Assembly: GCA_965249955.1 (NCBI GenBank)
Contig: OZ252261.1
Coordinates: forward strand, 1,823,971 to 1,887,970
Length of the DNA stretch: 64,000 nucleotides
Source: Bacteroidia bacterium
GTDB lineage: Bacteria > Bacteroidota > Bacteroidia > UBA8524
Reading direction: 5' to 3'
The notes beneath the pieces were generated by a model. It had not been told where the DNA came from. It searched no databases and saw only the letters and a program-made list of their open reading frames with translations. The position numbers and the translations under genes were made by a program. Shown here in pieces: positions 2,337 through 22,846 of the stretch. Position 1 is the first letter of the stretch, and each line of letters opens with the position of its first letter.

Positions 2337-2356
2337 CCCCATTAGTTTTTAATACT

Positions 2357-2393
2357 AAAAAAGGGGTGCTAAATTATTTAGCACCCCTTTTTT
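2357..2393. terminator. Bidirectional hairpin terminator between convergent hpf and the lipoprotein gene.
   Basis: AAAAAAGGGGTGCTAAAT-tat-TTAGCACCCCTTTTTT: A-run and T-run flank a ~13-bp stem. Confidence 0.6.
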
Positions 2394-2397
2394 GTAG

Positions 2398-3138: not shown

Positions 3139-3162
3139 GACGGAAATATAGTAAAAGCCTGA

Positions 3163-3498
3163 TTAAAAAGACAATACCTTGCCTTTTTCAATCAATAATT
3201 TTTTCGCAAACGGCCAGTCGGGAAGTGCCTCTGCCTCAAAAGTATAAACACGTATTTCTTTGGCAATTGTGGCACTTTGTTTCATAGCAGCCAAATGCTC
3301 GGCATTTCGAGAAAAAGTATTCATTTGTGTATCATTTTCCCATGCCGATAGAGTAAAATGCTTCAGTAGTCCCCCCGTTGTTCTATATCCTTTGCATGGC
3401 GAGGCTTTGAGTTGCTTAAAGACTTTAAGCACAATACCTGTAAAGACAAAAAACTTTAATGGTGAACGAAGTTCTATGGAAGTAATAGTAACTAACAT
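3163..3498 (-). CDS. Hypothetical small protein (111 aa), possibly in an operon with the upstream lipoprotein.
   Basis: ORF only. The 24-bp spacing to the downstream lipoprotein gene suggests co-transcription. No confident family assignment. Confidence 0.3.
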   Translation of the reverse strand: MLVTITSIELRSPLKFFVFTGIVLKVFKQLKASPCKGYRTTGGLLKHFTLSAWENDTQMNTFSRNAEHLAAMKQSATIAKEIRVYTFEAEALPDWPFAKKLLIEKGKVLSF

Positions 3499-3567
3499 AA
3501 TTGCAAAATAGATAGTACATTGTGGTTTTATAATAGTTTTCTATAAATAGTAGTAGATTATCTTTTA

Positions 3568-6510
3568 ATGCTTGCAATGAGAACAGGATTTAAGGCTTTT
3601 GTAATAGTTTTTTTTATTTTTTTAGGAAGTAGGATAGGGGCGCAGACATTTGCATTAAAAAACTACTCGGCAAATCAAGGGTTGCCCAGTTCAGAGGTTT
3701 ACAATTCAATTCAAGACGAGCAAGGATATATATGGTTTGCAACAGATAGAGGTATAGCTAAATACGATGGTTATTCGTTTAAAACGTTAACAACGCAGGA
3801 AGGGCTTACTGATAATACTGTGTTTGAGTTTTTTAAAGATAGTAAACAACAACTTTGGTGTAAAACATTTTCTTCAACCATAAACCGTATTTCTAATGAT
3901 AGTGCATATCCCTACAAATACAATAACCTAATTCAAACTCTCTTCCCTACAGAAATATTAAAAGAGTTGTTTTTTGATAAAAAGGGGGATTTATTTTTTG
4001 CAAAAGGAAGCGAAGAACAGGGCATAAGCATTTTCAGAATTGATAAATCAGGAAAACTAGATACTTTTAATAAAAGACAAGTAAAAGAAAGGCCAATAAG
4101 AGAAGTTTACCTCTCAGATAATGGGCGTTGCCTTGTTGGAGGAGACATTATAGCACCAACAACTGATATTTTTGAGCTGGGGAATAAAGAAAAAATAATA
4201 TCATTTACGCATGAAATTGAAAGAGGCGACCCGTTCTCTAAAAAAATAAATAACAATTATATAATCTGCATAAACCAAAAGATTTTTATATTAAAAGACA
4301 AGAAAATTAAAAAAATATGGGACTGCAAAGGGGAAACACTTTATTTTTTTATTGATAAAGACGAAAATTTTTGGATTGGATATAGAAGTTTAGGGTTTGA
4401 ATTTCTTTCGGCAAAAAGCGGTTATACAAAGGCCATATCGGGGTTAAACAACCACTCAATATCATCATTAAGTCAGGATAAAGAGGGAGGTATATGGATT
4501 ACAACATTAGAAAAAGGGGTATTCTATCTCGCGCCCTCGGCGCCCTTAGTATATACAAAAGAACAAGGCCTATCAACAGAAAAAATCAATAAAATAGTTA
4601 ATGTCGGAGGTAATATTGTAGCGCTTACCTCTGACGATCAATTGTTGCTAAAAGATAAAAACAGCAGTGTGTTTAAATCCATCTGGGGAAAAAAGAGATA
4701 CGCAACAGACATTGCTTATTCTGAAAAAAACGGAATTTTCACATTTTACCCAACAACAGAATTAATTGCTCCCCAACAGAAGCACACAATAATATTGGCA
4801 CATAAAAAAATATTTTTTGGCACAAGGTATTTATGGGGTGTTTTATATAAAAAAATAACAAAATTTACCCCTCAGGGAGAAATACTGGATAGTATTCCAT
4901 TTAATCAGAAAAGAGTTTTGTGCGTTGAAGAGTTAACCAACGGCGATTTATTGGTGGGCACCATTGGTGGTTTATACATATACAAAAACAAACAAGTTAC
5001 ATCACTTTCGTCAGCTAGCCCATTATTTAATTTGCGTGTTAGTGATATAAAGCAACTTGATAGTAACCATGTAGTTATTGCCACTTTGGGAGGAGGCATT
5101 TTAATAACACAGATAAATAATTATAAAAATACAATACAGTATAAAACAGATAGAGGTTTACCCAGCATAATGTGCAATACCCTGCTAAAGATTAATGATA
5201 GCACGCTTTGGGTGGGTACTAATAGAGGACTTTGTCGTGTCAACAATATATTGCAGCCAGATAAATCAATATTTACAGGCGTAGATATAAATAATGGGCT
5301 TGTATCAAACGAGGTAAATAATATTTGTGAAGTAGATGGTAAACTTTGGGTAGCAACAGCCGCGGGGATATCAATATTAAATCAGAAAACAATAGGTCAA
5401 GTTAATAGTAGCATACCTATTTATATAAAAAAAATAAATATTAATGGGGAAGAAACCCCATTATTGCCTTTGTTAAAACTAGCATATAATCAAAATAATA
5501 TAGCATTTTCATTTATTGGCCTTAATTATCAATATGCAGGGCAGTTAGTATACAAGTACCGCTTATTGGGTGCCGAAACAAAATGGAACACTACCACCAA
5601 CCTTTCAGTATTATACAATACCTTACCCTACGGAGAGTATACATTTGAAATTGGTGTAATGCGTCCAAGAGGCAGTGCACCCACACAATTTGTTAAATAC
5701 CACTTTACTATTTTGCCGCCACTTTGGCTTGAACCCTGGTTTATAGTATTTGTAGTAGCACTATTGGCATTACTTATATATTGGTATATACGTTATAGGG
5801 TAAACTTTGTGCGCAAGCAAGAGCAACTAAATGTAGATTTAAACACTTTTAGAGATAGAGCACTTCGTGGGCAAATGAACCCACACTTTATATACAATTC
5901 ACTAAACTCTATACAAAACTATATGCTTAAAAGCGATACAATGGCCTCCGTATCGTTCCTTTCAAAATTTTCCCAGCTTATGCGGCTCACCTTCAACAAT
6001 ACCGCACAAGAGTTAATTACCCTTGAAAAAGATATGGAAGCTTTGCTATTGTATATTGAGCTTGAAGACTTGAGATTTCAGCATAAATTTACAGTGCACA
6101 TAGAAAACAGCAGTAACTTAGATTTTTCTTTTATAAAAGTGCCTCCACTAATATTGCAGCCCTTTGTAGAAAATGCAATACAACACGGCTTGCTAACCAA
6201 AACAGGTGGCGGCAATATTTGGATTAGCTTTATCAAACACCCGGATAGTATAGAAATAACCATACAAGATGATGGAATTGGCCGAGCAAATGCAAAAAAA
6301 ATACAAGAAAGAAAAGCCCGATTTAAAGCCCGCTTAGTAAATGCCTTTGGCAGAAGGGAGTATACAGGCATTACTGCAACCCAAACCCGAATACAGCAAG
6401 CTTGGGGCAATAAGTTTAGCAAAAACCAGTTTAAAATAGTAGATTTAACAACTGATAATGGCTTGCCCAAGGGCACGCTAGTACACATTTTTTTACCTTT
6501 ATATGATTAA
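3568..6510 (+). CDS. Hybrid-architecture sensor histidine kinase: N-terminal signal/TM, periplasmic beta-propeller-like repeats (two-component regulator propeller / Y_Y_Y-type), TM, then LytS/YehU-type His_kinase and HATPase.
   Basis: The 980-aa protein carries repeated GxxxGGlxxy-type propeller segments (LWVGTNRGL, LWVATAAGIS). A TM lies at ~aa 735-760. The NPHFIYNSLNSIQNYM motif is typical of the LytS-type histidine kinase domain (PF06580). C-terminal ATPase motifs (QPFVENAIQHG, ITIQDDGIG) follow. Confidence 0.8.
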   Translation: MLAMRTGFKAFVIVFFIFLGSRIGAQTFALKNYSANQGLPSSEVYNSIQDEQGYIWFATDRGIAKYDGYSFKTLTTQEGLTDNTVFEFFKDSKQQLWCKTFSSTINRISNDSAYPYKYNNLIQTLFPTEILKELFFDKKGDLFFAKGSEEQGISIFRIDKSGKLDTFNKRQVKERPIREVYLSDNGRCLVGGDIIAPTTDIFELGNKEKIISFTHEIERGDPFSKKINNNYIICINQKIFILKDKKIKKIWDCKGETLYFFIDKDENFWIGYRSLGFEFLSAKSGYTKAISGLNNHSISSLSQDKEGGIWITTLEKGVFYLAPSAPLVYTKEQGLSTEKINKIVNVGGNIVALTSDDQLLLKDKNSSVFKSIWGKKRYATDIAYSEKNGIFTFYPTTELIAPQQKHTIILAHKKIFFGTRYLWGVLYKKITKFTPQGEILDSIPFNQKRVLCVEELTNGDLLVGTIGGLYIYKNKQVTSLSSASPLFNLRVSDIKQLDSNHVVIATLGGGILITQINNYKNTIQYKTDRGLPSIMCNTLLKINDSTLWVGTNRGLCRVNNILQPDKSIFTGVDINNGLVSNEVNNICEVDGKLWVATAAGISILNQKTIGQVNSSIPIYIKKININGEETPLLPLLKLAYNQNNIAFSFIGLNYQYAGQLVYKYRLLGAETKWNTTTNLSVLYNTLPYGEYTFEIGVMRPRGSAPTQFVKYHFTILPPLWLEPWFIVFVVALLALLIYWYIRYRVNFVRKQEQLNVDLNTFRDRALRGQMNPHFIYNSLNSIQNYMLKSDTMASVSFLSKFSQLMRLTFNNTAQELITLEKDMEALLLYIELEDLRFQHKFTVHIENSSNLDFSFIKVPPLILQPFVENAIQHGLLTKTGGGNIWISFIKHPDSIEITIQDDGIGRANAKKIQERKARFKARLVNAFGRREYTGITATQTRIQQAWGNKFSKNQFKIVDLTTDNGLPKGTLVHIFLPLYD

Positions 6511-10714: not shown

Positions 10715-13700
10715 ATGGGTTCACCAAAAAACGTTGTGTTATTTGTGGTGATGGGAGTTTTGTTTTCCATCCTAGCTCTATCCGTATCGGGTTCGGGCAA
10801 TGCTACCCCACACTATAAGCACTATACAGAAGCATCAAAAACTATTTCGGCAATAGATACGCCCGAAACAGATACTACTAAGTTAAAGTATCCTATTGAG
10901 GATACAGAAAACTTTAAAGACAAAAAGAAAAATCCCCTCGATCTTCAAGATCCTGATAATATTAAAAAAGAGGTGGTATACGATAGCGCCACCGGAAACT
11001 ATATTGAAAAACAAACCGTAGGAGGTAACGACTACAGGCTGCCACAAACCAAAACTATGGAAGAGTATTTGGAAGAAAGGCGCCAAAAAGAAAACCAAAG
11101 CTATTTTAGGCAACGCTCAAAAGCACAAAACTTTGTAAAAGGAAACAGCATAATACCCAAACTAAATCTTGGCCCTAAAGTATTAGATAAATTTTTTGGA
11201 AGTGGTTTAGTCGATTTACGCCCACAAGGTTCAGCCGAGTTAATTTTTGGGTGGAATTTTAACGTAGTTCGTAACCCCGCCTTCACCGTGAGGCAACAAC
11301 GCAACGGCCAGTTCGATTTCCGTCAGAAAATACAATTTAACCTTACAGGCTCTATTGGCGATAGGTTTAAAACTACATGGAGGTACGATACCGAAGCCAC
11401 CTTTGATTTTGACAATCAGATAAACCTAAACTGGCAAGGTAAAGAAGACGATATAATAAAAAACGTACAGTTGGGTAATGTTAGCTTGCCACTAAACAGC
11501 AGCCTTATACAAGGTGGGCAAAGCCTTTTTGGTGCATTGCTGCAAATGCAATTTGGCCGATTGATGGTTACCACCATATTTACCCAACAGCGTGGGCAAA
11601 CTACTGAAACCGAAGTAACAGGCGGTGCACAAGTAACCCAATTTGATATACAGGCCGATAACTACGATGTAAACCGTCACTACTTCCTTAGCCATTATTT
11701 TGCCGATAATTACGATCAGTGGTGCAGCACATCACCCTTTGTTAGTTCGCCCGTGCTTATTACCAACGTACAAGTTTGGGTAACCAACCGCACAGGTATA
11801 TTTGATAACACCCGCGATGTTTTGGCATTTATGGATATGGGTGAGCGCGACCCATTTAACAATGCTTGGAATATTCCCTCAGGCCCTGTAAACCCTGATA
11901 ATAGTTCAAACGCATTATACAACACCTTTCAGTTTGATGATTTGGCTCGCCAATCAAACGAGGCAGTGAAGCACTTACGCCAAGATAAAGGTTTAGACCC
12001 GATTCAAGATTTTCAACTACTTAATAACGCACGTCAGCTTAATACCAACGAGTATACTGTAAACCCGCGTTTAGGTTATATATCGCTAAATCAAGCACTA
12101 AACAACGACGAGATTTTAGCGGTAGCCTTTGAGTATACCCTAAACGGAAAAAGCTATAAAGTGGGCGAGTTTGCCCGTGAGGTTTCATCACCCGACCCTA
12201 ACAAACCCAATGCCTTGATGCTGAAAATGCTAAAAGGAACAACAATAACTACCAATTTGCCTATTTGGGATTTGATGATGAAAAACATCTATTCACTAGG
12301 CTCATTCAGTGTACAAAAAGAACAGTTTAAGCTAAATGTAATATATGCAGATGACCCATCAAATGCTGATTTGAATTATATTCCGGCTAAAAACGAACCC
12401 AATTTTATAGGCGTTCCATTAGTACAAGTATTAAATCTTGATAAAGTAAACACCCAAGGAGAACCAACCCCCGACGGTGTTTTTGATTTTATAGAAGGGC
12501 TTACCATAAACACATCAAACGGGCGTGTAATATTTCCCGTTCGTGAACCTTTTGGCGATTTTTTGCGAAGCAAGTTTCAGGATCCTGCAAATGCAGAATA
12601 TTATGCCTACGATGCTCTTTACGATTCTACCAAATGGCTGGCACAACAAGAAGTGCTAAAAAACAAATTCTTTTTACGGGGAAGTTACCAAGGCTCGTCA
12701 AATTCCGAAATTTCACTTAACGCCATAAACGTTCCGCAGGGTTCGGTGCGCGTTACCGCCAACGGTACTTTACTTACCGAAGGCACAGATTATATAGTTG
12801 ATTATACTATTGGGCGTGTAAAAATATTAAACACAGGTATACTCAATTCGGGCGCGGTAATAAAAGTATCGTCAGAAAACAACAACCTGTTTAGTATACA
12901 GCAAAAAACCCTTATGGGTGCTCGTTTTGATTATAAAGTAGACAAAGACTTTATAATAGGCGGTACAGTAATGCACTTGTATGAGCGACCCATTACCCCA
13001 AAAGTAAATATTGGCGAAGAACCTTTGCTAAATACCGTTGTAGGTATTGATGGTAGCATACGCCGTGAGTCGAGAGCATTAACACGTTGGATAGACCGCC
13101 TACCATTTATTAGCACCAAAGAGCCTTCAAATTTTCAGTTTAGTTTTGAAGGAGCAAAACTGTTTCCCCACAACCCCAAAACGATTGGTCAACGAGGCAC
13201 CGCCTTTATAGATGATTTTGAAGCGAGTGAAACCCCTTTTGATTTGCGCTTAGGAGCACCTTGGTATTTGGCTAGTACACCCGAAGGTCAACCCGACCTT
13301 TTCCCTGAAACCCAAAACTCTACTGATGCGCTGGGTTTTGGCTATAAAAGAGCGTTACTTTCGTGGTACTCTCTTGACCCTATTTTCTTCCGCGACCAAC
13401 AAGGAAGTAATCCGCCAACACCGCCCAACTTGGCAGGTTCAAACAATGCCTCAAAACGTTCAAACCACTACACACGCGAGGTATTGCAAACAGAGGTTTT
13501 CCCAAATCGTCAACTACAACAAGGTGTGCCACAAAATATGCCCACTTTCGATTTGGCATACTACCCCTACAAACGTGGCCAATACAACTACACAGTTAAC
13601 GATATAAATGCTGATGGCGAAATGAAAGACCCTAAATCAAGCTGGGGTGGTATTATGCGCCGTATTGACCAAAACGATTTTGAAGCAGCAAATATTGATT

Positions 13701-16700
13701 ATGTAGAGATATGGATGATGGATCCGTTTTTACCCGGTCAGAACGGAACAATACAAGACGGTCAGTTCAACTCAAACAACCTTACAGGTGGTTCGTTATA
13801 CCTAAACTTAGGTTCGATATCAGAAGATGTATTGCGCGATACCCGTAAAAGTTACGAAAACGGTTTGCCAACCCCATCATCAACACAACAACTTATTGAT
13901 ACAACAGAGTGGGGTAGAGTACCCAATGTACCTACACTAAACAATGCGTTTGATGCCGACCCTGCTGCCCGCGATGCGCAAGACGTAGGTTTAGATGGTT
14001 TTAATGATAATGATGAGAGGGTACATTTTGCAAAGTACTTAGATGACCTTCGTACGCAATACGGAGCTACTTCGCAAGCCTATTTAAAAGCCGCCGAAGA
14101 CCCATCGGGAGATAATTACCAATTTCACAGTAGCAATAGTTTAAACAATCAAAACGCAACGGCACTTCAGCGTTACCAAAAAATAAATGGACAAGAGGGA
14201 AACTCGAAACTAGCCACTTTCCAACCCGATGGTTACCCCATTACCCGTACAAATTTGCCAGACGACGAGGATATTAACCGCGATTACAGCTTGAACATTA
14301 ACGAGCAATACTATCAGTATAAAATAGAGCTTAAACCCAACTCACTTGTAGTGGGGCAAAACTATGTTACCGATAGTGCCTCTGTTCCTGTAAAGTTAGA
14401 AAACGGAGATGTAGAAAATGTTACTTGGTATCAATTGCGTATACCCGTAAACTCTTGGAGCAAGAAAATAGGCGGTATTAGCGATTTTAAATCTATTCGT
14501 TTTGCGCGCTTATTTGTAAAAGATTTCGATCAGCCTGTTGTACTGCGTTTTGCACAAATGCAGTTGGTGCGAGCAGATTGGAGGAGATATACCAAACCTC
14601 TATCAGTTGGTGTACCGGGTGTACCGGGTTCGCCCAGTGATAATACTACTTTCTCGGTTTCAACCGTAAACATTGAGGAAAACTCTACCCGTGTTCCGGT
14701 AAACTATACCTTACCTCCGGGATTTTTCCGCGAGCAAGATGTAACTACCCCAAACAATGTGCAGCAAAACGAGCAATCGGTTTCAGTACGTTTTTGCAAC
14801 CTGCAAGAAGGCGATGCAAGGGGTATATTTAAAACCACACGTTTTGATATACGTAACTATAAGCGCTTGCGTATGTTTGTTCACGCAGAAGGCGAAAGCC
14901 AAGGCCTGCGCAATGGAGATGTAAAAGCCTTTATACGTTTAGGTACGGATTTAGAAAACAACTATTACGAGTACGAGTTACCCATGTTGGTTACTCCTGA
15001 TAGAAGTCGTGATGCACAGCAAGTATGGCCTACTGAAAACGAGATTAATATTGCCCTTGAAGAGTTTTATTTGGCCAAGCAATTGCGCCAAAATGCCAAT
15101 GCGCCACAAAACCAAGACTTTGTATACGATTTAGGTGGTGGGAAACGGATTACACTTAGAGGTGTGCCCGATTTGAGCAATGTGCGTGTAATAATGCTTG
15201 GCGTGCGCAACCCTGCTAAGTTTGATAGCCCTGCCGGAGATGATGGATTAGCAAAATGTGGTGAGGTTTGGTTTAACGAGTTACGCGTAGTAGAATTTAA
15301 CAACCAAGGTGGTGAAGCTGCTACGGCAAGGTTAGTAACCAAGTTGGCCGATTTAGGAACATTTACCGTATCGGGTAATTACCAATCTATTGGTTGGGGG
15401 GGTATTGATAAAAAACTAAACGATCGTAATCTAAACGAGATAATGCTGTACGATATGCAAACCTCGTTAGAGTTGGGTAAATTTTTTCCTGCCAAATGGG
15501 GCATAACCGTCCCCTTCTTTATGCAACGTGGCGAGCAGTTTATACGCCCCAAGTACAATCCGCTAAACCCTGATATTTTGCTTGAAACTACTGTGAAAGC
15601 AGCCCAAAACGAGCAAGAGAAACAAGAAATTTTAAACGCAGCAGAAGACTATACCGCACGAAGGAGCTTTAACTTTACCAACGTACGCAAAAACCGAATG
15701 GGTGGGGGTAAGCCTCAACTTTGGGATATTGAGAATTTTAACTTCACTTTCTCGTTTCAAGAAGTATTTAGGCGAAACCAGCAAATTGCTGCCAGTTTGC
15801 AGCGCACATGGCGCGGAAGCGGTGGGTATACTTTTGCCACAGGTGCAAAAAATATAGAGCCGTTTAAAAAGATAATTAAGCCTAAAAAATGGTTGGCTTT
15901 AGTACGTGATTTTAACTTTACACCCTATCCTCAAAGCTTCTCAGTTAGGGCTGATGCCGATAGGTATTACTCTCGCACAATAAACCGAAACAACGACGAC
16001 CCTAATACTATTGTACCCATACTGTACGATAAAAACTTTACCATGAATAGGGTGTACGATATGCGTTGGGATTTAACCAAAAGTCTTAAAGTTGACTACC
16101 AAGCAACCACCAATGCCCGTATTGACGAACCTGCAGGGCGCATTGATAAAAACGAAAACGCCAACAAGGTAGATACTATACAAAACAACTTTATTAATTT
16201 GGGGCGTACCACCAACTATACCCAAATAACCAACGTAAACTATACCCTGCCACTAAACAAAATACCTGTTTTAGATTGGGTAACAGCAAGCACACGCTAT
16301 ACTGCCAACTACGGTTGGGTTACTGCGCCACCGGCAATAAAAAGCCTAGGAAATACCATACAAAACTCACAAAACTATTCGTATACAGGGCAGTTTAATA
16401 TGATAAACTTGTACAACAAGATACCTGCCTTGCGACGTATCAATCAGAACAAGAGCAATCAGCCGCAGCCAAAACAAGAAGAAGAGGAGGAGGAAGACGA
16501 TGGCAAAGGCGGTAAAAGGAAGAAAAAGAAAAAAACCGAATCGCCACTAAAAGGTTTTGGTACTACGTTGGCAAAAACCTTGATGATGCTTAAAAACGCA
16601 TCTTTTACCACTACATCAACCAAAGGAACAACATTACCGGGCTTTAAGCATACGCCATTGTATTTGGGTAACGATGCTGAACGTAATGCTCCTGGGTGGG

Positions 16701-17908
16701 ATTTTGTATTTGGTAGTCAAGACCCTGCTGTGCGTTACCGATTGGCATCAGAAGGTTTTTTAAGTAACGATACCCTTCAAAACACTTACTTTACACAAAC
16801 CAGCCGAAAAGACTTTTCTGCCAGTGCTACACTTGAACCTTTTAAAGATTTTAGGGTAGAACTTAGGTTTGCACGAAATCAAACCGAAAACTTACAGAGT
16901 GTATTTAGGTACGATGAGGCACTAAAAGGCTATACCGATTTTGGTTTCCAACAAACGGGTAGTTTCCAAATTGGTGTTTCTACATTGCGCACAGCGTTGG
17001 AGAAAAAAGCCACCAATACCAGTTCAAAATCATTCGACCAGTTTTTAAACAATCGTTTTGTAATAGCACAGCGATATGCCGCAGAAGACCCTCGCTCGGT
17101 AGGTGCCACTCAAAGTGGTTTCCCTAAAGGCTATACCAACAAAAATCAAGATGTATTAATATCTTCATTCGTGTCGGCATACACGGGCAAAAATGCACAA
17201 GACCAAAAACTGGACTTATTCCCTAAAATCCCATTCCCTTCAATTCGTATCAATTACAACGGGTTAAGCCGTATGAAGGCGATTAAAAAATACGCTAGCA
17301 GCGTAACCCTATCATCGTTTTATAGCTCTACATACAATATACCGCAGTATATGACTATTTTGAGCCGTAACGACACTGCTGTAAGTAGCTTGGATAGTAA
17401 CTTCTTCCCTCAATACGAGATACGCTCAGTAACCATACAAGAAAGCTTTAATCCATTGATTAGGATAGATATTACCTTCCTTAATAATATTACTACCAAT
17501 GTAGAGTATAAATCGTCGCGCAATATATCGTTATCGCTATTCAACTTTATGATGGTTGAGACGCGCAATACCGAATTTGTAATTGGTTTTGGCTATCGTG
17601 CCAAAGAAATATACCTTCCGTTTAAAGTTCGCGGGCGTAAACCCTACCTGAAAAACGACTTGAATGTACGTTTCGATTTCTCTATTCGTGATGTAGTAAC
17701 TATAACCCGCAACGTACAAACTTTACAAACTATACCCACGCAAGGGCAGCGTATTTTATCTATAAAACCACAAATAGATTATATGCTGAACGAAAAACTA
17801 AACCTACGTTTCTATTACGATAGAAGAGTAACCAAACCCGCAACATCAAATGCTTTCCCTACGGCAATTACGCAAGGGGGTATATCGTTGCGTTACACAC
17901 TACAATAA
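10715..17908 (+). CDS. sprA: Type IX secretion system translocon / gliding motility protein SprA (Sov family).
   Basis: Single 2397-aa ORF with N-terminal signal peptide, very high Asn/Thr/Tyr beta-rich composition, and a C-terminal beta-barrel ending ...GGISLRYTLQ. Size and composition match Flavobacterium SprA / Porphyromonas Sov. Confidence 0.85.
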   Translation: MGSPKNVVLFVVMGVLFSILALSVSGSGNATPHYKHYTEASKTISAIDTPETDTTKLKYPIEDTENFKDKKKNPLDLQDPDNIKKEVVYDSATGNYIEKQTVGGNDYRLPQTKTMEEYLEERRQKENQSYFRQRSKAQNFVKGNSIIPKLNLGPKVLDKFFGSGLVDLRPQGSAELIFGWNFNVVRNPAFTVRQQRNGQFDFRQKIQFNLTGSIGDRFKTTWRYDTEATFDFDNQINLNWQGKEDDIIKNVQLGNVSLPLNSSLIQGGQSLFGALLQMQFGRLMVTTIFTQQRGQTTETEVTGGAQVTQFDIQADNYDVNRHYFLSHYFADNYDQWCSTSPFVSSPVLITNVQVWVTNRTGIFDNTRDVLAFMDMGERDPFNNAWNIPSGPVNPDNSSNALYNTFQFDDLARQSNEAVKHLRQDKGLDPIQDFQLLNNARQLNTNEYTVNPRLGYISLNQALNNDEILAVAFEYTLNGKSYKVGEFAREVSSPDPNKPNALMLKMLKGTTITTNLPIWDLMMKNIYSLGSFSVQKEQFKLNVIYADDPSNADLNYIPAKNEPNFIGVPLVQVLNLDKVNTQGEPTPDGVFDFIEGLTINTSNGRVIFPVREPFGDFLRSKFQDPANAEYYAYDALYDSTKWLAQQEVLKNKFFLRGSYQGSSNSEISLNAINVPQGSVRVTANGTLLTEGTDYIVDYTIGRVKILNTGILNSGAVIKVSSENNNLFSIQQKTLMGARFDYKVDKDFIIGGTVMHLYERPITPKVNIGEEPLLNTVVGIDGSIRRESRALTRWIDRLPFISTKEPSNFQFSFEGAKLFPHNPKTIGQRGTAFIDDFEASETPFDLRLGAPWYLASTPEGQPDLFPETQNSTDALGFGYKRALLSWYSLDPIFFRDQQGSNPPTPPNLAGSNNASKRSNHYTREVLQTEVFPNRQLQQGVPQNMPTFDLAYYPYKRGQYNYTVNDINADGEMKDPKSSWGGIMRRIDQNDFEAANIDYVEIWMMDPFLPGQNGTIQDGQFNSNNLTGGSLYLNLGSISEDVLRDTRKSYENGLPTPSSTQQLIDTTEWGRVPNVPTLNNAFDADPAARDAQDVGLDGFNDNDERVHFAKYLDDLRTQYGATSQAYLKAAEDPSGDNYQFHSSNSLNNQNATALQRYQKINGQEGNSKLATFQPDGYPITRTNLPDDEDINRDYSLNINEQYYQYKIELKPNSLVVGQNYVTDSASVPVKLENGDVENVTWYQLRIPVNSWSKKIGGISDFKSIRFARLFVKDFDQPVVLRFAQMQLVRADWRRYTKPLSVGVPGVPGSPSDNTTFSVSTVNIEENSTRVPVNYTLPPGFFREQDVTTPNNVQQNEQSVSVRFCNLQEGDARGIFKTTRFDIRNYKRLRMFVHAEGESQGLRNGDVKAFIRLGTDLENNYYEYELPMLVTPDRSRDAQQVWPTENEINIALEEFYLAKQLRQNANAPQNQDFVYDLGGGKRITLRGVPDLSNVRVIMLGVRNPAKFDSPAGDDGLAKCGEVWFNELRVVEFNNQGGEAATARLVTKLADLGTFTVSGNYQSIGWGGIDKKLNDRNLNEIMLYDMQTSLELGKFFPAKWGITVPFFMQRGEQFIRPKYNPLNPDILLETTVKAAQNEQEKQEILNAAEDYTARRSFNFTNVRKNRMGGGKPQLWDIENFNFTFSFQEVFRRNQQIAASLQRTWRGSGGYTFATGAKNIEPFKKIIKPKKWLALVRDFNFTPYPQSFSVRADADRYYSRTINRNNDDPNTIVPILYDKNFTMNRVYDMRWDLTKSLKVDYQATTNARIDEPAGRIDKNENANKVDTIQNNFINLGRTTNYTQITNVNYTLPLNKIPVLDWVTASTRYTANYGWVTAPPAIKSLGNTIQNSQNYSYTGQFNMINLYNKIPALRRINQNKSNQPQPKQEEEEEEDDGKGGKRKKKKKTESPLKGFGTTLAKTLMMLKNASFTTTSTKGTTLPGFKHTPLYLGNDAERNAPGWDFVFGSQDPAVRYRLASEGFLSNDTLQNTYFTQTSRKDFSASATLEPFKDFRVELRFARNQTENLQSVFRYDEALKGYTDFGFQQTGSFQIGVSTLRTALEKKATNTSSKSFDQFLNNRFVIAQRYAAEDPRSVGATQSGFPKGYTNKNQDVLISSFVSAYTGKNAQDQKLDLFPKIPFPSIRINYNGLSRMKAIKKYASSVTLSSFYSSTYNIPQYMTILSRNDTAVSSLDSNFFPQYEIRSVTIQESFNPLIRIDITFLNNITTNVEYKSSRNISLSLFNFMMVETRNTEFVIGFGYRAKEIYLPFKVRGRKPYLKNDLNVRFDFSIRDVVTITRNVQTLQTIPTQGQRILSIKPQIDYMLNEKLNLRFYYDRRVTKPATSNAFPTAITQGGISLRYTLQ

Positions 17909-17962: not shown

Positions 17963-18233
17963 TTGCCTTAGGCTAAAGGATTTTAAATCCTCACTTAACG
18001 TGAGTTTGGGGTAAGAAGATTACAGAAACGGCACATCAATTTTAATCACCCGTAGTATTTGCTTATCTGTGCACAAGCACTGGCATTATCTCCCTTGCGA
18101 ACTATCTTATGTTGACCGAAACAATAAGTGTATGCAAAGCGGGTAGAAGGATGAAAAAACAGCTAAAAAATATAGAATGATTTTTTTAGTTGAATAAAGG
18201 CCAAGCCATATCCATTCAATAAAAGCCTTAAAA

Positions 18234-18368
18234 CTATTGTTTATGGGGGGTGGGTTGTTTCTCCCAAGTGGGGCAGTTGCAGCCTTTTTTAAACAAGCCG
18301 CACGATGATGCAGAAGCCATAAAAACTACCAGTAAAAGCACTGCTGCTATTGTTCTTATTCGTTTCAT
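18234..18368 (-). CDS. Candidate 44-aa secreted or lipid-anchored peptide. Speculative.
   Basis: MKRIRTIAAVLLLVVFMASASSCGLFKKGCNCPTWEKQPTPHKQ: signal peptide plus lipobox-like ASSC, then a Cys-rich tail (C-x-C). It lies in a 570-bp intergenic region between sprA and dedA. Confidence 0.2.
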   Translation of the reverse strand: MKRIRTIAAVLLLVVFMASASSCGLFKKGCNCPTWEKQPTPHKQ

Positions 18369-18481
18369 TGTATCCTGTTTTAACGCAAAAAACGCGCCTG
18401 TTTGCATAAGCAAACGGTAAAAATAATACTACTTGGGCAGGTTTGTGCTAAAATTGACGTAAAATTGCCCAAATTTTCACA

Positions 18482-19129
18482 ATGGATTACCTTAAAGACT
18501 TCCTCGATTTTTTCTTGCACCTTGATGATAAGCTGTTGCTAATGATACAAGAGTATGGCAACTGGGTGTACGCCATTTTGTTTGCTATAATTTTTGTAGA
18601 AACAGGGCTTATTATAATGCCTTTTCTTCCCGGTGATTCACTGCTATTTGCTGCAGGTGCTTTTGCCGCTGCAGGCGATTTAAACATAGTATACATTATA
18701 CTATTATTGTTTGTGGCTGCCGTTTTGGGTGATACCGTAAACTACTCGGTAGGAAAACAATTAGGCGTTAGGGCTACCAAAATAAAATTGTTTGGGCGTA
18801 ACCTAGTGAAACAAGAACACTTGGATAAAACCCATGCTTTTTTTGAAAAATATGGCCCCAAAGCCATTATAATAGCTCGTTTTGTACCCATAGTGCGCAC
18901 TTTTGCCCCTTTTGTGGCGGGCGTTGGCAGCATGACTTATGGAAAATTTATTACTTATAATGTTGTTGGAGGTGCTTTGTGGGTAGTTGGTGTTAGCATG
19001 GTAGGTTATATGTTTGGTCAAACTGCTTGGGTAAAAGAGAACTTTGAAATTGTGGTGTTTGGTATTATTTTTATATCAATAGTGCCCATAATTTTTGAGT
19101 TTATAAAACATCGTTTCTCAAAAAAATAA
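18482..19129 (+). CDS. DedA / VTT (SNARE-associated) family membrane protein.
   Basis: Typical DedA core (FVETGLIIMPFLPGDSLLFAAGAFAA..., IIARFVPIVRTFAPFVAGV). 215 aa, multiple TM segments. Confidence 0.85.
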   Translation: MDYLKDFLDFFLHLDDKLLLMIQEYGNWVYAILFAIIFVETGLIIMPFLPGDSLLFAAGAFAAAGDLNIVYIILLLFVAAVLGDTVNYSVGKQLGVRATKIKLFGRNLVKQEHLDKTHAFFEKYGPKAIIIARFVPIVRTFAPFVAGVGSMTYGKFITYNVVGGALWVVGVSMVGYMFGQTAWVKENFEIVVFGIIFISIVPIIFEFIKHRFSKK

Positions 19130-19130
19130 T

Positions 19131-19883
19131 ATGCAACTGGGGCTAATAGGTTTCCCTTTAGAGCACTCTCGTTCTCCTGAAATTTTTGCTCGTTTTTTTG
19201 ATGAAGATAGGGCGAAGGGGGCAAGCTATAAGCTTTATCCGCTTGAAGATATTACCACGTTGCGTAGTTGGCTTAAAAGTCTTCCCAATCTTGTTGGGTT
19301 CAACGTTACTATACCGCATAAAAAAAGCATTATCCCAATGCTTGATTGGGTAGCCGATGAAGCTATTGCAATAGGTGCTGTAAACACTGTGAAAGTGGTG
19401 CAACAAGAGGGGAAAACAAAGCTACACGGTTACAATACCGATTACTATGGCTTTGCCACCACTCTAAAGCAGTTTTTAGGCGATTACAAGCCACAAAGAG
19501 CTTTAGTGCTTGGTACGGGCGGCAGCGCAAATACTGTGGTGTATACACTAGCGAAAATGGGCATAGCGTATACAAAAGTATCGCGCAACAGCAGTGCTGA
19601 TGCACCAATGACGTACGATGATATTTCAGACCAAACAATAGCTCAAACTCAGCTTATAATTAATACTACCCCGTTGGGTATGTATCCTTCAATAAAATCG
19701 TTTCCCAAAATACCATACCAAGCACTAACGCCTCAGCATTACCTGTACGATTTGGTGTATAACCCCTTAGAAACCGTGTTTTTGCAAAATGGCAAAGGGT
19801 ATGGAGCAAATATTCAAACAGGTATAACCATGCTAGAGCTGCAAGCACGCAAGGCTTGGGAGATTTGGAAAGAGGAGGTTTAA
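19131..19883 (+). CDS. aroE: Shikimate 5-dehydrogenase.
   Basis: LGLIGFPLEHSRSPEIF N-terminus (shikimate-binding SxS motif). NVTIPHK. GAVNTV. LVLGTGGSA Rossmann motif. 250 aa. The start is 2 nt after the dedA stop. Confidence 0.85.
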   Translation: MQLGLIGFPLEHSRSPEIFARFFDEDRAKGASYKLYPLEDITTLRSWLKSLPNLVGFNVTIPHKKSIIPMLDWVADEAIAIGAVNTVKVVQQEGKTKLHGYNTDYYGFATTLKQFLGDYKPQRALVLGTGGSANTVVYTLAKMGIAYTKVSRNSSADAPMTYDDISDQTIAQTQLIINTTPLGMYPSIKSFPKIPYQALTPQHYLYDLVYNPLETVFLQNGKGYGANIQTGITMLELQARKAWEIWKEEV

Positions 19884-19884
19884 C

Positions 19885-20604
19885 CTAAATAATCTCAAAT
19901 TTTACTATTACCGTGTAGCTAATAGTAATTAAAGTGCCGCTGCTTTTTTCCTGCTTCATTTTGCCAATTAGTAAAGTCATAAAAACACTATCGGTTGTAA
20001 AATCATCAGCCTTTTGTGTAATAGATATAACCTTCCCCAGTTTGTCGCCATTAATCTCAACCATAGGCGTAGCATGGTCTTTTGCTTTTTGTACCGCTTT
20101 TAATGAAAGAAGATTTTTGTAGTGGTCGGTCTTGCTATTGTTAAAAGAAGTTAGCTTAATCCGTTCAGCACCTAAAGAGTCTAAGCCGCTCATAATGGGC
20201 GCTATGCGAGAAATTTTCTTAAGATTTAAGGTAAAGCGTTTAAAATCGTTCTTCTCAAAATACACCCCGTCATAGCTTTGATTTTCAAGACCTGATATAA
20301 AAGTAACAAGATGGTTATCAGCTATGCCGTATTGGGCAAGAAAAGCACGTATTTCTTTTTCCTGTTGCTCAATGGTTTTCTTTTTAAGCTCAACCTTCAA
20401 AAAATCAGTTGTTCCTTTTTCTGCTGCCGTCGCTATCTCTTCCTCATTATATCCTTTAGAAGTTGTAAGATAAAATTCAAAAGTAAACTCATCCGCTTCA
20501 ACCTCCATTTTTTCGGTAGCCACTACTTCAATAAAACGTTGTTGTGCAAAGGATACAAGGGGCATTGTCAAACCCAAAAAAAGAATCAGCAGTAGTTTTT
20601 TCAT
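19885..20604 (-). CDS. SIMPL (DUF541) family periplasmic protein, paralog 1.
   Basis: Signal peptide MKKLLLILFLGLTMPLVSFAQQ followed by RFIEVVATEKMEVEADEFTFEF, the SIMPL N-terminal pattern (I.V.G.G...PD.a.....V). 239 aa. Confidence 0.65.
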   Translation of the reverse strand: MKKLLLILFLGLTMPLVSFAQQRFIEVVATEKMEVEADEFTFEFYLTTSKGYNEEEIATAAEKGTTDFLKVELKKKTIEQQEKEIRAFLAQYGIADNHLVTFISGLENQSYDGVYFEKNDFKRFTLNLKKISRIAPIMSGLDSLGAERIKLTSFNNSKTDHYKNLLSLKAVQKAKDHATPMVEINGDKLGKVISITQKADDFTTDSVFMTLLIGKMKQEKSSGTLITISYTVIVKFEII

Positions 20605-20607
20605 AAT
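20524..20607 (-). repeat. 84-bp segment identical, apart from one mismatch, to 21211-21294. It encodes the shared signal peptide and first mature residues of the two SIMPL paralogs.
   Basis: Direct comparison of the two segments: tacttcaataaaacgttgttgtgcaaaggatacaaggggcatt[g/a]tcaaacccaaaaaaagaatcagcagtagttttttcataat. Confidence 0.85.
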
Positions 20608-20622
20608 ACTTGGTTTTACTCG

Positions 20623-21291
20623 TTATTGAATTGCAAAGCGTACTATAGCTGAGTACTCAACGGTTATCATATAGTCATTAGATTTTTTTTCTCTAAACAT
20701 TTTTGACAACACAGCTTTTTGAGCATTCGCTACCATCTCCATATAATCAGAGTTGCTATTTATCTTTTCTTGTATAGAAAGTACTTTGCCAATTTTTTCA
20801 CCATAAGTACTTAACAGGTTCATGGCTTTTTTCTTAGCATTTTCTAACGCTTCTTTTTGTGCTTTGTTTTTTAATTCCTCAAGTTGTTTGCTAGAAGAGG
20901 AACTAATTTCTACTGAACTTCCTTGTAGAAGATTCAAGAACGTCATTACATCAGGGATAATCTTGGGGTTATAAAGCATAATAAGATACCTTCTTGTTTT
21001 ACCTTTACTTCCCATCATATATGTCGAGGGCTCGTCTTCTCCTAAAAAAGTAACTAATAGAGGGTCTACTCCTTTATCAGAAAGAAATTTTTTTGTACTG
21101 TCTTCAAGTTCATCAAGCGTTTTGACATTTATCCCATCACTGCTGCTTTCAGTAAGGGTTAAACTTAGGGTTAAGTCATCAGGTACTACCTCTATGGAAG
21201 CCTCTCCCTGTACTTCAATAAAACGTTGTTGTGCAAAGGATACAAGGGGCATTATCAAACCCAAAAAAAGAATCAGCAGTAGTTTTTTCAT
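20623..21291 (-). CDS. SIMPL (DUF541) family periplasmic protein, paralog 2.
   Basis: Same signal peptide, then RFIEVQGEASIEVVPDDLTLSLTLTE (SIMPL motif). 222 aa. Identity to paralog 1 is low outside the N-terminus. Confidence 0.65.
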   Translation of the reverse strand: MKKLLLILFLGLIMPLVSFAQQRFIEVQGEASIEVVPDDLTLSLTLTESSSDGINVKTLDELEDSTKKFLSDKGVDPLLVTFLGEDEPSTYMMGSKGKTRRYLIMLYNPKIIPDVMTFLNLLQGSSVEISSSSSKQLEELKNKAQKEALENAKKKAMNLLSTYGEKIGKVLSIQEKINSNSDYMEMVANAQKAVLSKMFREKKSNDYMITVEYSAIVRFAIQ

Positions 21292-21294
21292 AAT
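21211..21294 (-). repeat. Second copy of the 84-bp SIMPL 5'-end repeat.
   Basis: See 20524-20607. Confidence 0.85.
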
Positions 21295-21297
21295 TAG

Positions 21298-22335
21298 TTA
21301 ATCTTCTTTGTGTTTCAACTCGCGTTGTTTCTGTACAAACTCATCGTGATAAATACGCAATAGCAAAATAAACAGCGATACTAGCAAAGGGCCAAAAACC
21401 AAACCTATAAAACCAAACAGGTTTATACCAATTATTACCCCAAACATAGTAATAAGCGGGTGTACATCAGCCATGCGTTTTTGTAGCACAAGCCTAAAAA
21501 CATTATCAATATTTATTATTACCCCCACACCAAAGGCAAAAAGGGTAATACCTTGCCACTCTTGCCCATTAAAATAAAGGTATAAAGCAAGCGGAAACCA
21601 CACAGCAGTACTACCAATTACAGGCAGCATTGATGCAAAAGCCGTTACCGAACCCCACAATAAAGGGTCGGGCACACCTAGCACCCAATAGGCAATAAAG
21701 GCAAAAATAGCCTGTATAATGGCCAACAAGGGTATACCAATAGCGTTTGACAGCACCATGCTATTAATTTCTTTACCTATCTTTTTTACGTTTTCATCGC
21801 GTAGCGGCACATACTCATACAACCAGCGCTCCATTTCGCGTCCACTGGTAAGCATAAAATACAGCACAAAATACAGCAAGGCCACTATTAACATAGTGTC
21901 CATAGTGGCCAATAAAATATTAGGCACTATGTTTCCTATCATTTCAGGCAAGCGCTCAAGGTTTTTGTCGCTCATCAAATCAATGTCAAGTTTTGTATTT
22001 AAGGTGGTAACAAAGTCTTGCACCTTGCCTAACCATTGGTCAGGATTTTCAAGTAAAACGCTTAATTTGTTATACAACTGCTTTAGCAATAATGAGGTGG
22101 GCAGTAGTATAATAATAAACGAAAGCAGCATTATAGTAAGTGCCGCAATGGTTTTCTTCCATTTCTTTTTTAGGGTGAGATAAAACATAAACTCCCTAAA
22201 AAGCACATAAAAAGTAACAGCTCCCAACAAGGCCGAAAGAAAAGGGTATACCTCTAACGAGATGATAAACCCAAGGCCACCAATGAGAAGAAGAAAAAAT
22301 ATTTGTCGCAAGCGGTTGCTATCAAGGTTGGCCAT
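21298..22335 (-). CDS. AI-2E family transporter (PerM/YdiK/TqsA-like, UPF0118).
   Basis: ~345-aa polytopic membrane protein starting MANLDSNRLRQIFFLLLIGGL. Family-typical C-terminal region (LGVPDPLLWGSVTAFASMLPVIGSTAVWFPLAL...LVFGPLLVSLFILLL). The in-frame upstream extension to 22659 has no stop, but it is not conserved-looking. Confidence 0.7.
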   Translation of the reverse strand: MANLDSNRLRQIFFLLLIGGLGFIISLEVYPFLSALLGAVTFYVLFREFMFYLTLKKKWKKTIAALTIMLLSFIIILLPTSLLLKQLYNKLSVLLENPDQWLGKVQDFVTTLNTKLDIDLMSDKNLERLPEMIGNIVPNILLATMDTMLIVALLYFVLYFMLTSGREMERWLYEYVPLRDENVKKIGKEINSMVLSNAIGIPLLAIIQAIFAFIAYWVLGVPDPLLWGSVTAFASMLPVIGSTAVWFPLALYLYFNGQEWQGITLFAFGVGVIINIDNVFRLVLQKRMADVHPLITMFGVIIGINLFGFIGLVFGPLLVSLFILLLRIYHDEFVQKQRELKHKED

Positions 22336-22477
22336 AGTGGTAATAGTTGCCGTAAATAAGGATATGAAGTAAATATAATAGAAAAAAGGAAGTTGCCGAT
22401 ATAAATTAGTACTAATTTTGATTTGAATTGATTGCCGTGTCCGTATAAAAAGCACGGGCAAAAACGTAACATATTTT

Positions 22478-22846
22478 ATGGAAGATAATTTTAAAGAATT
22501 TTTTGGGGAGACCAAAACCCTGCTAAAAAAGTATACCGATAAGCGACTTGAGTTGGTAAAACTACAAGCAACACTTAAAACCTCGCAGGCATTGGGGCTG
22601 TTTTTTTCGCTGTTTATAGTGTTTTTTATACTGTTGTTTGCCATAGTGTTTGCAGGCATGTGGTTTTCGTTTTGGTTGGCCGAGAAAACAGGCAGTTACT
22701 CCACAGGTTTTGGCATTAGTACAGGTATTTTGGTGTTGCTTTTTGTGCTAGCACTATTGCTGCGCAAAAAGTTGATACAAACACCCGTAGCCAATTTGGT
22801 AGCCAGTGAAATAGCCAACGATGATGATGAAGAGTTTGAAGACTAA
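22478..22846 (+). CDS. Small 2-TM protein resembling the phage-holin-like 'Holin-X' superfamily. Uncertain.
   Basis: 122 aa. Charged N-terminus, two adjacent TM helices (LGLFFSLFIVFFILLFAIVFAGMWF / ILVLLFVLALLL), and an acidic C-terminal tail DDDEEFED. Confidence 0.4.
   Translation: MEDNFKEFFGETKTLLKKYTDKRLELVKLQATLKTSQALGLFFSLFIVFFILLFAIVFAGMWFSFWLAEKTGSYSTGFGISTGILVLLFVLALLLRKKLIQTPVANLVASEIANDDDEEFED

Follow-up and report, generated by a model that had tools for sequence, protein, structure and literature searches.

Two neighbouring SIMPL/DUF541 genes of a Bacteroidia bacterium, strongly diverged over most of their length, start with an almost identical stretch of 84 nt. This short 5′ tract was probably copied from the upstream gene (B) onto the start of the downstream gene (A) by ectopic gene conversion, and a repeat-mediated deletion between the resulting repeats would then have produced the one-gene alleles that occur in the same species. 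In the following, the window is the whole stretch of 64,000 nt that was analysed, to which all coordinates refer, whereas signed positions are counted from the start of each gene.

The paralogous pair and its direct repeat

The locus comprises the following features:

21298-22335, minus strand: AI-2E family transporter gene, which stops 6 nt ahead of the start of B; synteny conserved
21291-20623, minus strand: gene B, the upstream paralogue, SIMPL/DUF541 (ORF and Pfam), 222 aa, with an N-terminal signal-peptide-like segment
21211-21294, minus strand: repeat copy 1, ATT plus B codons 1-27, with ATA (Ile13) as codon 13
20605-20622, minus strand: B-A spacer of 18 nt, the final 3 nt of which (ATT) are part of the repeat; orthologous to the L001 spacer by alignment
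20604-19885, minus strand: gene A, the downstream paralogue, SIMPL/DUF541 (ORF and Pfam), 239 aa
20524-20607, minus strand: repeat copy 2, ATT plus A codons 1-27, with ACA (Thr13) as codon 13; demonstrable converted core at 20527-20563
19131-19883, plus strand: shikimate dehydrogenase gene, oriented convergently to A; it bounds the locus on the right in all relatives

Both proteins pass the gathering score of the SIMPL family PF04402 in Pfam (57.6 bits for B and 43.1 bits for A; cut-off 25.2), with matches over profile positions 1-200 and 1-205, respectively, of 205. Their likeness to the family, whose bacterial members include Brucella BP26/Omp28 and E. coli YggE, consists of this full-length fit to the profile and of a signal-peptide-like segment at the start. 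The N-terminus reads as MKK followed by the hydrophobic run LLLILFLGLIMPLVSF and by A and QQ, a pattern typical of signal peptidase I substrates, and a putative cleavage site would lie between the A and the QQ. No relatives in the PDB were detected by sequence at E <= 0.01 (phmmer), and a literature search on SIMPL/DUF541 gave no result bearing on the AI-2E/B/A locus. The 3′ end of the AI-2E gene forms the leader of B, as it does that of the single gene in one-gene genomes, and the distance of only 6 nt between them makes it probable that the transporter gene, B and A are co-transcribed.

A sequence-only reading of the window had described a nearly identical 84-bp 5′ end on two diverged SIMPL paralogues, including 4 nt of leader. 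The near-identity is confirmed, with 83 of 84 positions matching and a single C/T difference, at codon 13, but the leader common to both genes is one nucleotide shorter (ATT), position -4 being A in B and T in A. The direct repeat thus contains 3 nt of leader, the signal-peptide codons and 7 residues of the mature protein. Identity stops sharply at +82; a codon alignment of the rest of the genes gives 45.3% identity for DNA and 29.4% for protein, far from the near-identity of whole genes that a simple recent duplication would leave. The mismatch divides the repeat into exact blocks of 40 and 43 nt, the latter being the longest exact run between A and B, as compared to a mean of 9.1 nt and a maximum of 23 nt in 10,000 permutations (P <= 1e-4); when the window was shuffled, the 84-mer match appeared in no shuffle. 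The two copies, which enclose a unique segment of 603 nt, are the only near-identical repeats of at least 35 nt in the 64-kb window.

Both copies, with the identical C/T difference, are present in the independent assemblies L010, L011, L012 and L014. In L019 the A copy (ACA) is confirmed behind the 3′ end of B and the spacer, and in L013 the upstream repeat copy is confirmed. The same structure in five independent metagenome assemblies (L010, L011, L012, L014 and L019) means that the repeat is not an assembly artefact, a doubt that the sequence-only reading had raised itself. An artefact had been one way to account for the pair, together with a recent tandem duplication of the whole gene followed by very fast divergence outside the 5′ end, with which the tandem arrangement and the same orientation of the genes would agree. 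This explanation is vanishingly improbable and already refuted, as at least five independent assemblies carry the structure, while B has an 80% identical orthologue (P0002) in L001 and a 41-43% identical one (40.8% by blastp) at the corresponding locus in another genus, and A has orthologues of its own.

A and B are ancient tandem paralogues, which would encode secreted or periplasmic SIMPL-domain proteins. Third codon positions of their bodies are 32-35% identical, and about 25 other SIMPL clusters score nearer to B than A does. The closest relative of B outside, P0010, is 43% identical, and a more distant genus (L020/L021) has a syntenic pair of A-type and B-type genes with unrelated 5′ ends. 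Since B and A each have their own orthologues, their split long predates the species. When genome contigs were searched with the AI-2E protein, L016 and L017 were the only loci obtained, the window's own genome not being among them. Gene B is missing from three sister species, and in a tree of the flanking genes the one-gene L002, L006 and L016 form a clade with the window species (grouped with L016 in 195/200), with the two-gene L001 outside (200/200), which indicates that B has been lost repeatedly.

Origin of the 5′ tract

The tract and the body of gene A have different histories. Along the tract, A of the window agrees with its paralogue B at 80 of 81 positions and with A orthologues at 62-64 of 78, whereas the DNA identity of its body amounts to 45% with B but 68-71% with A orthologues (29% and 62-66%, respectively, in amino acids). 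For gene B, the agreement with the L001 orthologue is 70/81 in the tract and 85.5% in the DNA of the body. Among the informative sites, A carries the B-type state at 6/6 in the tract and at 19/189 in the body (Fisher p = 2.5e-6). In the comparison across species, A orthologues agree at 62-67 of 78 tract positions. The orthologous loci include both one-gene and two-gene forms, and in the two-gene relative L001 the 5′ ends of the paralogues are diverged (58/78, with a longest exact run of 14 nt), so the 84-nt identity is specific to the lineage of the window species. All these comparisons support the earlier suggestion of a recent gene conversion or recombination confined to the 5′ end.

The 3′ part of the tract is of B-type origin. 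Between +58 and +78 of A, a CAA indel, TTT (Phe) and GAA agree with B of L001 and with no A orthologue, and the agreement with this B orthologue covers +58 to +81. The derived G42 (Met14) occurs in both copies and is restricted to the window species. The stretch from +42 to +57 is not polarised, as its sequence CCTTTGCACA fits the A gene of L001 too, and the transfer can be given a clear direction only at about +58 to +81, the polarisation of sites being based on a single B orthologue outside the species, that of L001. On the other side, the first 41 nt are shared throughout the genus by A and B genes alike, with 11-14 of 14 third codon positions conserved, so that the demonstrable conversion is limited to about +42 to +78. 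This common segment points to an older homogenisation of the first ~41 nt in the genus. The conversion reading presumes that MPLVSFAQQRFIEV and its codons were not present in both genes ahead of their divergence.

The most likely pathway implies a non-reciprocal homologous recombination of short tract length in the lineage of the window species, which would probably have started within the ~41 nt at the 5′ end of the coding sequence that A and B of the genus already had in common. Gene B would be the likely donor for the 3′ part of the tract and A the acceptor, its start being overwritten by B sequence through codon 27. The limits of the tract would be -3, where the leader homology ends, and +81, with a demonstrable core at +42 to +78. 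An adaptive function need not be invoked, and the sharing of a signal peptide follows simply from the position of the homology.

Two further candidate signatures were considered and rejected. Older conversion tracts within the gene body were suggested by B-like patches in A, such as 'LVTF', but 19 of 81 lineage-specific changes match B (23%), about the random level. A B-to-A crossover was looked for in the one-gene L002, L006 and L016, whose gene is over its first ~44 nt slightly nearer to the B start than to the A start of L001, with too few sites for the candidate to be kept.

A different account of the identity dispenses with recombination and supposes that strong purifying selection at the nucleotide level keeps the 84 nt identical, for instance because the signal-peptide codons contain a region for translation initiation, the target of an sRNA or some other cis-regulatory RNA element. 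The good conservation of the first 41 nt in all A and B genes of the genus, third positions included, would fit such an element. However, positions 42-81 vary across species in the B orthologues, in the A orthologues and between the L001 paralogues alike, and codons 1-14 are conserved among orthologues at 79-100%, not clearly above the 66-76% of the body. Moreover, an old element under selection cannot explain the lineage-specific derived G42 in both copies, no Rfam family was matched in the window, and the two starts bear no relation to each other in the more distant genus. This alternative is therefore most improbable, being largely refuted by the orthologue comparison. The related proposal of the sequence-only reading, that selection for a common export signal or regulatory element maintains the identity, finds no support either: Rfam at the gathering threshold gave 0 matches over the whole window, and the tract is not conserved across species. 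Between the genes, a scan for sigma-70 promoters and terminators, run without Bacteroidia promoter types, found nothing convincing.

One-gene and two-gene alleles

Both a one-gene and a two-gene allele exist in the species, the former known from short-read metagenome contigs. Three same-species contigs, L005 (Logan), L015 (GenBank MDTD01041440.1, 14.5 kb) and L018 (ENA), contain one copy of the 84-mer between the 3′ end of the AI-2E gene and the body of A, and lack exactly 687 nt according to blastn and repeat counts. In the window, the missing segment corresponds to:

20608-21294, minus strand: 687-nt unit, consisting of one repeat copy, the B body and the spacer; equally writable as 20524-21210

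The breakpoints thus fall exactly in the repeat. The deletion junction is given by three different samples and sources (SRR29041254, the source sample of MDTD01 and ERZ23487507). L015, the one contig obtained when metagenomes were searched for a degenerate pattern of 41 nt, matches the window at 98.8-99.1% identity across its full 14.5 kb, and L018 is about 99% identical upstream of the repeat. L005 is 99.0% identical upstream and 94.9% downstream of the repeat, a pattern that a chimeric join would also produce. In support of the junction, among like-named contigs L010, L014 and L019 have the two-gene form, in other samples, and L018 the one-gene form. Samples with the two-gene form are ERZ23495397, ERZ23796840, ERZ17160196 and ERZ23495719.

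It also counts against the one-gene form, known as it is from assembled short reads, that a small-k assembler might in principle go astray at an 84-nt repeat whose exact blocks measure 40 and 43 nt.

After the conversion, the 84-nt direct repeat would be a substrate for unequal crossover of the RecA type or for replication slippage, either of which would take out the 687-nt unit. The product would be a single in-frame gene with the leader and the signal peptide of B on the body of A. The conversion would have come first and the deletion second.

Three positions of the gene, nt 38, 291 and 405, show fixed differences between three one-gene and five two-gene contigs, a small sample of 2 and 3 distinct haplotypes, respectively. 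At all of them the one-gene alleles have the ancestral state, as seen in the outgroup, and all two-gene alleles the derived one, which is consistent with an early deletion and equally with a history in which the one-gene form came first. The ancestral states would suit a scenario in which deletion comes first and re-insertion second. An ancestral two-gene locus with diverged 5′ ends would lose the B body by an illegitimate or homeologous crossover near +80, leaving the single hybrid gene of L005, L015 and L018. A relative would later contribute a two-gene allele by recombination, the crossover on the right falling within the 41-nt segment, which would restore B and the spacer and place a second B-type 5′ end ahead of the A body. 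The 84-nt identity would then be a by-product of allelic recombination and not of conversion within the chromosome. That all five two-gene contigs are derived at these sites speaks for it, as do the 41-nt segment common to all genus members and the mosaic variation of the locus in the population (~1% divergence upstream and 1-5% downstream), which is typical of frequent allelic recombination. However, two rare events would be required, first a crossover where only ~15 nt are imperfectly homologous and then a double crossover one arm of which has 41 nt, whereas conversion followed by deletion requires one conversion and an easy deletion between repeats. Furthermore, the same-species contigs include no two-gene allele whose A start is unconverted. 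The deletion-first order is hence considered unlikely.

The coincidence of the repeats with the polymorphism also bears on the recombinational switch between two cassettes that had been proposed from the sequence. In its programmed or high-frequency form, the 687-nt B cassette would be reversibly excised as a circle and re-integrated, making the expression of B phase-variable. The species does have both forms, their breakpoints coinciding exactly with the repeats, and excision and re-integration at conserved segments have been proposed for tandem paralogue clusters (PMC2568036). On the other hand, the repeats are direct, not inverted, and the reciprocal product, B-spacer-repeat-B, appears in no contig. 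Pfam calls at the same-species locus L010 comprise Iso_dh, SLFN_AlbA_2, CMD, two unassigned small proteins, AI-2E, two SIMPL, Shikimate_dh_N and VTT, with no recombinase or integrase family listed in the flanks of B covered there, ~4 kb on the upstream side and ~3 kb on the downstream side (one gene cut by the contig end left out). One-gene and two-gene contigs, separated by the three fixed differences, were never found together in one sample, which argues for rare events rather than rapid switching. What stands of the proposal is therefore the exact match between repeats and alleles; the separate allele classes, the direct repeats and the lack of a nearby recombinase make a programmed switch highly improbable.

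A broader variant would regard the 5′ end as a maintained recombination module, homogenised at least twice (over ~41 nt in the ancestor of the genus and up to +81 in the window species) and serving a selected, recombinase-free cassette switch that excises and re-inserts the 687-nt B unit. Such a module, which we consider very unlikely, would give populations a reversible repertoire of one or two periplasmic SIMPL proteins.

Significance and comparison with known systems

Conversion followed by deletion offers a worked case of how the gene content of uncultured Bacteroidia evolves. A conversion of very small extent (37-84 nt) can make a perfect direct repeat inside otherwise saturated paralogues, and earlier 5′ homology in the signal-peptide codons can channel the position of recombination. 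The new repeat would make a gene dispensable by deletion, giving a presence/absence polymorphism within the species that matches the repeated loss in sister species. A caution for annotation and pangenome studies follows from the hybrid single gene, which equals A but for one residue, yet occupies the position of B. No new mechanism is shown, and the function of SIMPL proteins is not illuminated by this pair; the case, well documented here, belongs to a known type, the ordinary recombination of gene copies that lie side by side.

Several bacterial systems offer parallels. In Salmonella, tufA and tufB undergo non-reciprocal transfer between paralogues in one chromosome, which become more alike than orthologues are. 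Conversion of the tuf genes homogenises whole, highly similar and strongly constrained genes, whereas here the tract has at most 84 nt in genes otherwise saturated with differences. The outer-membrane paralogues babA/babB and sabA/sabB of Helicobacter pylori, which show segmental concerted evolution, have near-identical ends, including the 5′ region of the signal peptide, and divergent middles, and their RecA-dependent conversion leads to chimeric genes. The bab loci are dispersed and their conversion alters the adhesin phenotype, tied to host adaptation, whereas A and B are adjacent. In the vsa/vsp systems of Mycoplasma, which make surface lipoproteins phase-variable, several genes have a common leader and signal-peptide sequence, and recombination takes place inside that 5′ end. 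Those systems use a site-specific recombinase, inverted sites, a single expression site and silent cassettes, whereas here both genes are complete, the repeats direct and the allele classes stable.

The tandem lipoprotein paralogues (lpl) of Staphylococcus aureus contain a conserved intragenic segment that is a site of homologous recombination, with deletions, apparent conversions and hybrid ORFs differing among strains (Tsuru & Kobayashi 2008, PMC2568036). As in that family, A and B are tandem paralogues of exported-protein type, mostly diverged, with one short and highly conserved nucleotide segment. However, the lpl segment is central in the ORF, in a family of many members on a genomic island of a pathogen, whereas the locus studied here has two genes with the segment at their extreme 5′ end, in an uncultured environmental Bacteroidia host, and the identity of the repeat would itself be recent, made by conversion.

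The shared start of two tandem SIMPL genes

Two SIMPL/DUF541 genes, B and A, lie 18 nt apart behind an AI-2E-family transporter gene, and the start of each is one copy of an 84-nt direct repeat.

Features of the SIMPL locus in the window
22335..21298, minus strand: AI-2E-family transporter gene, 6 nt before gene B
21291..20623, minus strand: SIMPL gene B, 222 aa, PF04402 above the Pfam gathering score
21211-21294, minus strand: repeat copy of gene B, ATT plus codons 1-27, codon 13 ATA (Ile13)
20604..19885, minus strand: SIMPL gene A, 239 aa, PF04402 above the Pfam gathering score
20524-20607, minus strand: repeat copy of gene A, ATT plus codons 1-27, codon 13 ACA (Thr13)
19131-19883, plus strand: shikimate dehydrogenase gene, convergent with gene A

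The copies are 687 nt apart, start to start, and differ at codon 13 only. The 84-nt shared start described by the sequence-only reading is real, with a leader of 3 nt instead of the 4 given there. Identity ends sharply at -4 and +82, and past this tract codon alignment gives 45% DNA and 29% protein identity between the genes, with third codon positions at saturation (32-35% identical). The longest exact run between both genes is 43 nt, where permutations gave a mean of 9.1 and a maximum of 23, no match to the 84-mer occurred in shuffled windows, and no other near-identical repeat of at least 35 nt exists within the 64-kb window. Four independent metagenome assemblies of the species, at 98-99% nucleotide identity (L010, L011, L012, L014), carry the two copies and repeat the C/T difference between them, and one copy was confirmed in each of L013 and L019. 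Such recurrence disposes of an assembly artefact.

A second tandem paralog pair (39185-39916 and 40048-40773, plus strand; 243 and 241 aa, no assigned function) shares a 113-nt direct repeat at its 3′ ends ('LNYFQKNYFE.P.EEFKE.LI'), which at 73% identity is far below the SIMPL tract and could just reflect conservation of a C-terminal motif. The mechanical AI-2E ORF (21298-22659, minus strand; 453 aa) begins 108 codons ahead of the start that its relatives have (345 aa, MANLDSNRL...), and one Logan gene call, in L005, gives 387 aa; these long forms are probably over-extensions. About 2 kb separates the locus from a SprA-like gene of 2397 aa (10715-17908) that is syntenic in all relatives. At the gathering score, Rfam returned no family in the whole 64-kb window, so that no riboswitch, rRNA or further curated RNA is annotated there.

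An old pair with a probable recent transfer of the start

Gene B has an ortholog in the related two-gene locus L001 (P0002, 80% identical), and the orthologs of A in related species are 62-66% identical. In an exhaustive search of the B body, the gene past the tract, against 1.84 billion cluster representatives, about 25 clusters outscored the A-type representatives, the best being P0010 (43% identity). This protein comes from a more distant genus (L020/L021) and occupies the corresponding syntenic locus there, with the order (2183-3684) AI-2E, A-type of 259 aa, B-type of 227 aa and shikimate dehydrogenase, and with unrelated 5′ ends and signal peptides in the SIMPL pair. Together, the orthologs, the closer clusters and the distant pair indicate an ancient pair and no recent whole-gene duplication, the alternative that had been raised under the form of whole-gene near-identity; a recent duplication or an assembly artefact is refuted and keeps practically no probability. 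As the SIMPL order in L020/L021 is reversed with respect to the window, the genes changed places somewhere in the ancestry leading to that genus to which the window belongs, an event that may have given B its A-like start. In another distant relative (L017:6030-7830; AI-2E 77% identical) two unrelated minus-strand genes of 328 and 194 aa occupy the SIMPL slot, with no SIMPL gene between AI-2E and shikimate dehydrogenase; this locus is syntenic with these Bacteroidia loci, and its public record, 'MAG: Agrobacterium sp.', is probably mislabelled.

Over the tract, the window's A matches B at 80 of 81 positions and its own orthologs (L001, L002, L006, L016) at 62-64 of 78, a relationship that is reversed in the body. 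At informative sites, meaning positions at which all four A orthologs agree and B has another state, the window's A shows the B state in 6/6 cases in the tract and 19/189 in the body (Fisher p = 2.5e-6). This conflict upholds the earlier proposal of a recent conversion or recombination limited to the 5′ end. Moreover, the L001 B ortholog agrees with the window's A in three features between +58 and +78, a CAA indel, TTT (Phe) and GAA; the derived G42 (Met14) occurs in the window species only, and there in both copies; and the A and B starts of L001 have diverged (58/78, longest run 14 nt). By all these data, the transfer belongs to the window's lineage and came after that lineage had parted from L016 and the other relatives. 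Nucleotide-level selection without recombination is a highly improbable cause of the likeness, since +42 to +81 is not conserved across species and derived states are common to both copies.

Judged from these sequences, the transfer would have run from B to A, at least for the 3′ part of the tract, and only +42 to +78 can be shown to be converted, because the first 41 nt are nearly alike in every A and B of the genus. Over codons 1-14, A and B are identical at 11-13 of 14 third positions, which are ortholog-level values, and different signal peptides are seen in outside B-like proteins and in the L021 pair. Taken together, these findings point to the first ~41 nt having been homogenised earlier, close to the genus base, and a connection of that event to the change in gene order is speculation; this shared start would be the obvious seed of the later, longer tract.

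The window's A (19885-20604) also evolves much faster than its orthologs, most strongly at gene nt ~300-450, with 81 lineage-specific changes at sites invariant in the four other A orthologs (each of the others, 7-18). Its amino acid identity to them is 62-66%, as against 76-81% among themselves and 88-93% for the flanking genes. Copying from B was rejected as the source of these changes, of which only 23% match B.

One-gene alleles and the probable loss of gene B

Three contigs from this species carry only one SIMPL gene.

One-gene contigs
L005: Logan, SRR29041254
L015: GenBank MDTD01041440.1, 14.5 kb, 98.8-99.1% identical to the window
L018: ENA ERZ23487507

In all of them the AI-2E 3′ end is followed by a single 84-mer (ATA) and the A body, with exactly 687 nt absent, the product expected of crossover or slippage between direct repeats. 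Two haplotypes are represented, one common to L015 and L018 and the other in L005. Sites 38, 291 and 405 read T, T, A in 3/3 one-gene contigs and C, C, G in 5/5 two-gene contigs, and outgroup comparison makes T38, T291 and A405 ancestral. These fixed differences indicate distinct and fairly old allele classes instead of rapid switching, and no sample contained both forms. They also weigh, together with the direct orientation of the repeats and the lack of a recombinase among the Pfam calls for the neighbourhood (~4 kb upstream and 3 kb downstream), against a programmed cassette switch, which is very unlikely.

The one-gene form is seen in assembled contigs, and identity of L005 to the window falls from 99.0% upstream of the repeat to 94.9% downstream, a step that could be a chimeric join or genuine mosaicism; L010 and L015 are likewise more variable downstream. 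In favour of a real allele, the same junction comes from three sources, and contigs of the same naming style from other samples have the two-gene form. A de Bruijn contig that crosses a repeat longer than k normally means that no competing branch survived. Around 18230-20607, L005, L010 and L015 diverge from the window by ~1% upstream of the SIMPL genes and by 1-5% on the downstream side, which takes in the A body, DedA, shikimate dehydrogenase and the intergenic region; the SNP blocks are mosaic and suggest segments imported by allelic recombination. In L018 (254-919), A has moreover lost 54 nt in frame (gene nt ~211-264) and with them 'VELKKKTIEQQEKEIRAF', part of the insert separating A-type from B-type proteins.

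Most probably, a short ectopic conversion from B to A was followed by repeat-mediated deletion, giving a presence/absence polymorphism. The pre-existing ~41-nt homology would seed the conversion, the B start would overwrite that of A to form the 84-nt direct repeat, and crossover or slippage between the copies would remove 687 nt and leave a single hybrid gene. The main rival is the reverse course, in which the hybrid gene came first and the shared 41-nt segment later served as one arm for recombining B back in. It agrees with the ancestral states of the one-gene alleles but requires two rarer events, and seems unlikely.

Across the genus, a neighbour-joining tree of AI-2E, shikimate dehydrogenase and DedA (811 aa, 200 bootstraps) places two-gene L001 outside the clade of L002, L006, L016 and the window species (200/200), and one-gene L016 as sister of the latter (195/200), so that B has either been lost at least two to three times or belongs to a long-lived polymorphism. 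Species with one gene have A immediately after AI-2E, the junction being A-type ('AQRYIEV'); few sites bear on it, and they are consistent with earlier deletions by crossover inside the ~41 nt shared at the start.

Comparison with known systems

The SIMPL pair, which falls outside site-specific phase-variation systems, is a fresh instance of a known phenomenon, with no new mechanism. The bab/sab chimeras of H. pylori and tufA/tufB conversion are among its analogues. The closest described analogue found is the tandem lipoprotein cluster lpl of S. aureus, where a conserved intragenic segment is a homologous recombination site, and the deletions, apparent conversions and hybrid ORFs that result are seen among strains (PMC2568036). 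The SIMPL case differs in having two genes, a very short tract at the extreme 5′ end over the signal peptide, and an uncultured environmental Bacteroidia host, and its value lies in the documentation of a full chain from old homology through short conversion and perfect repeat to gene loss.
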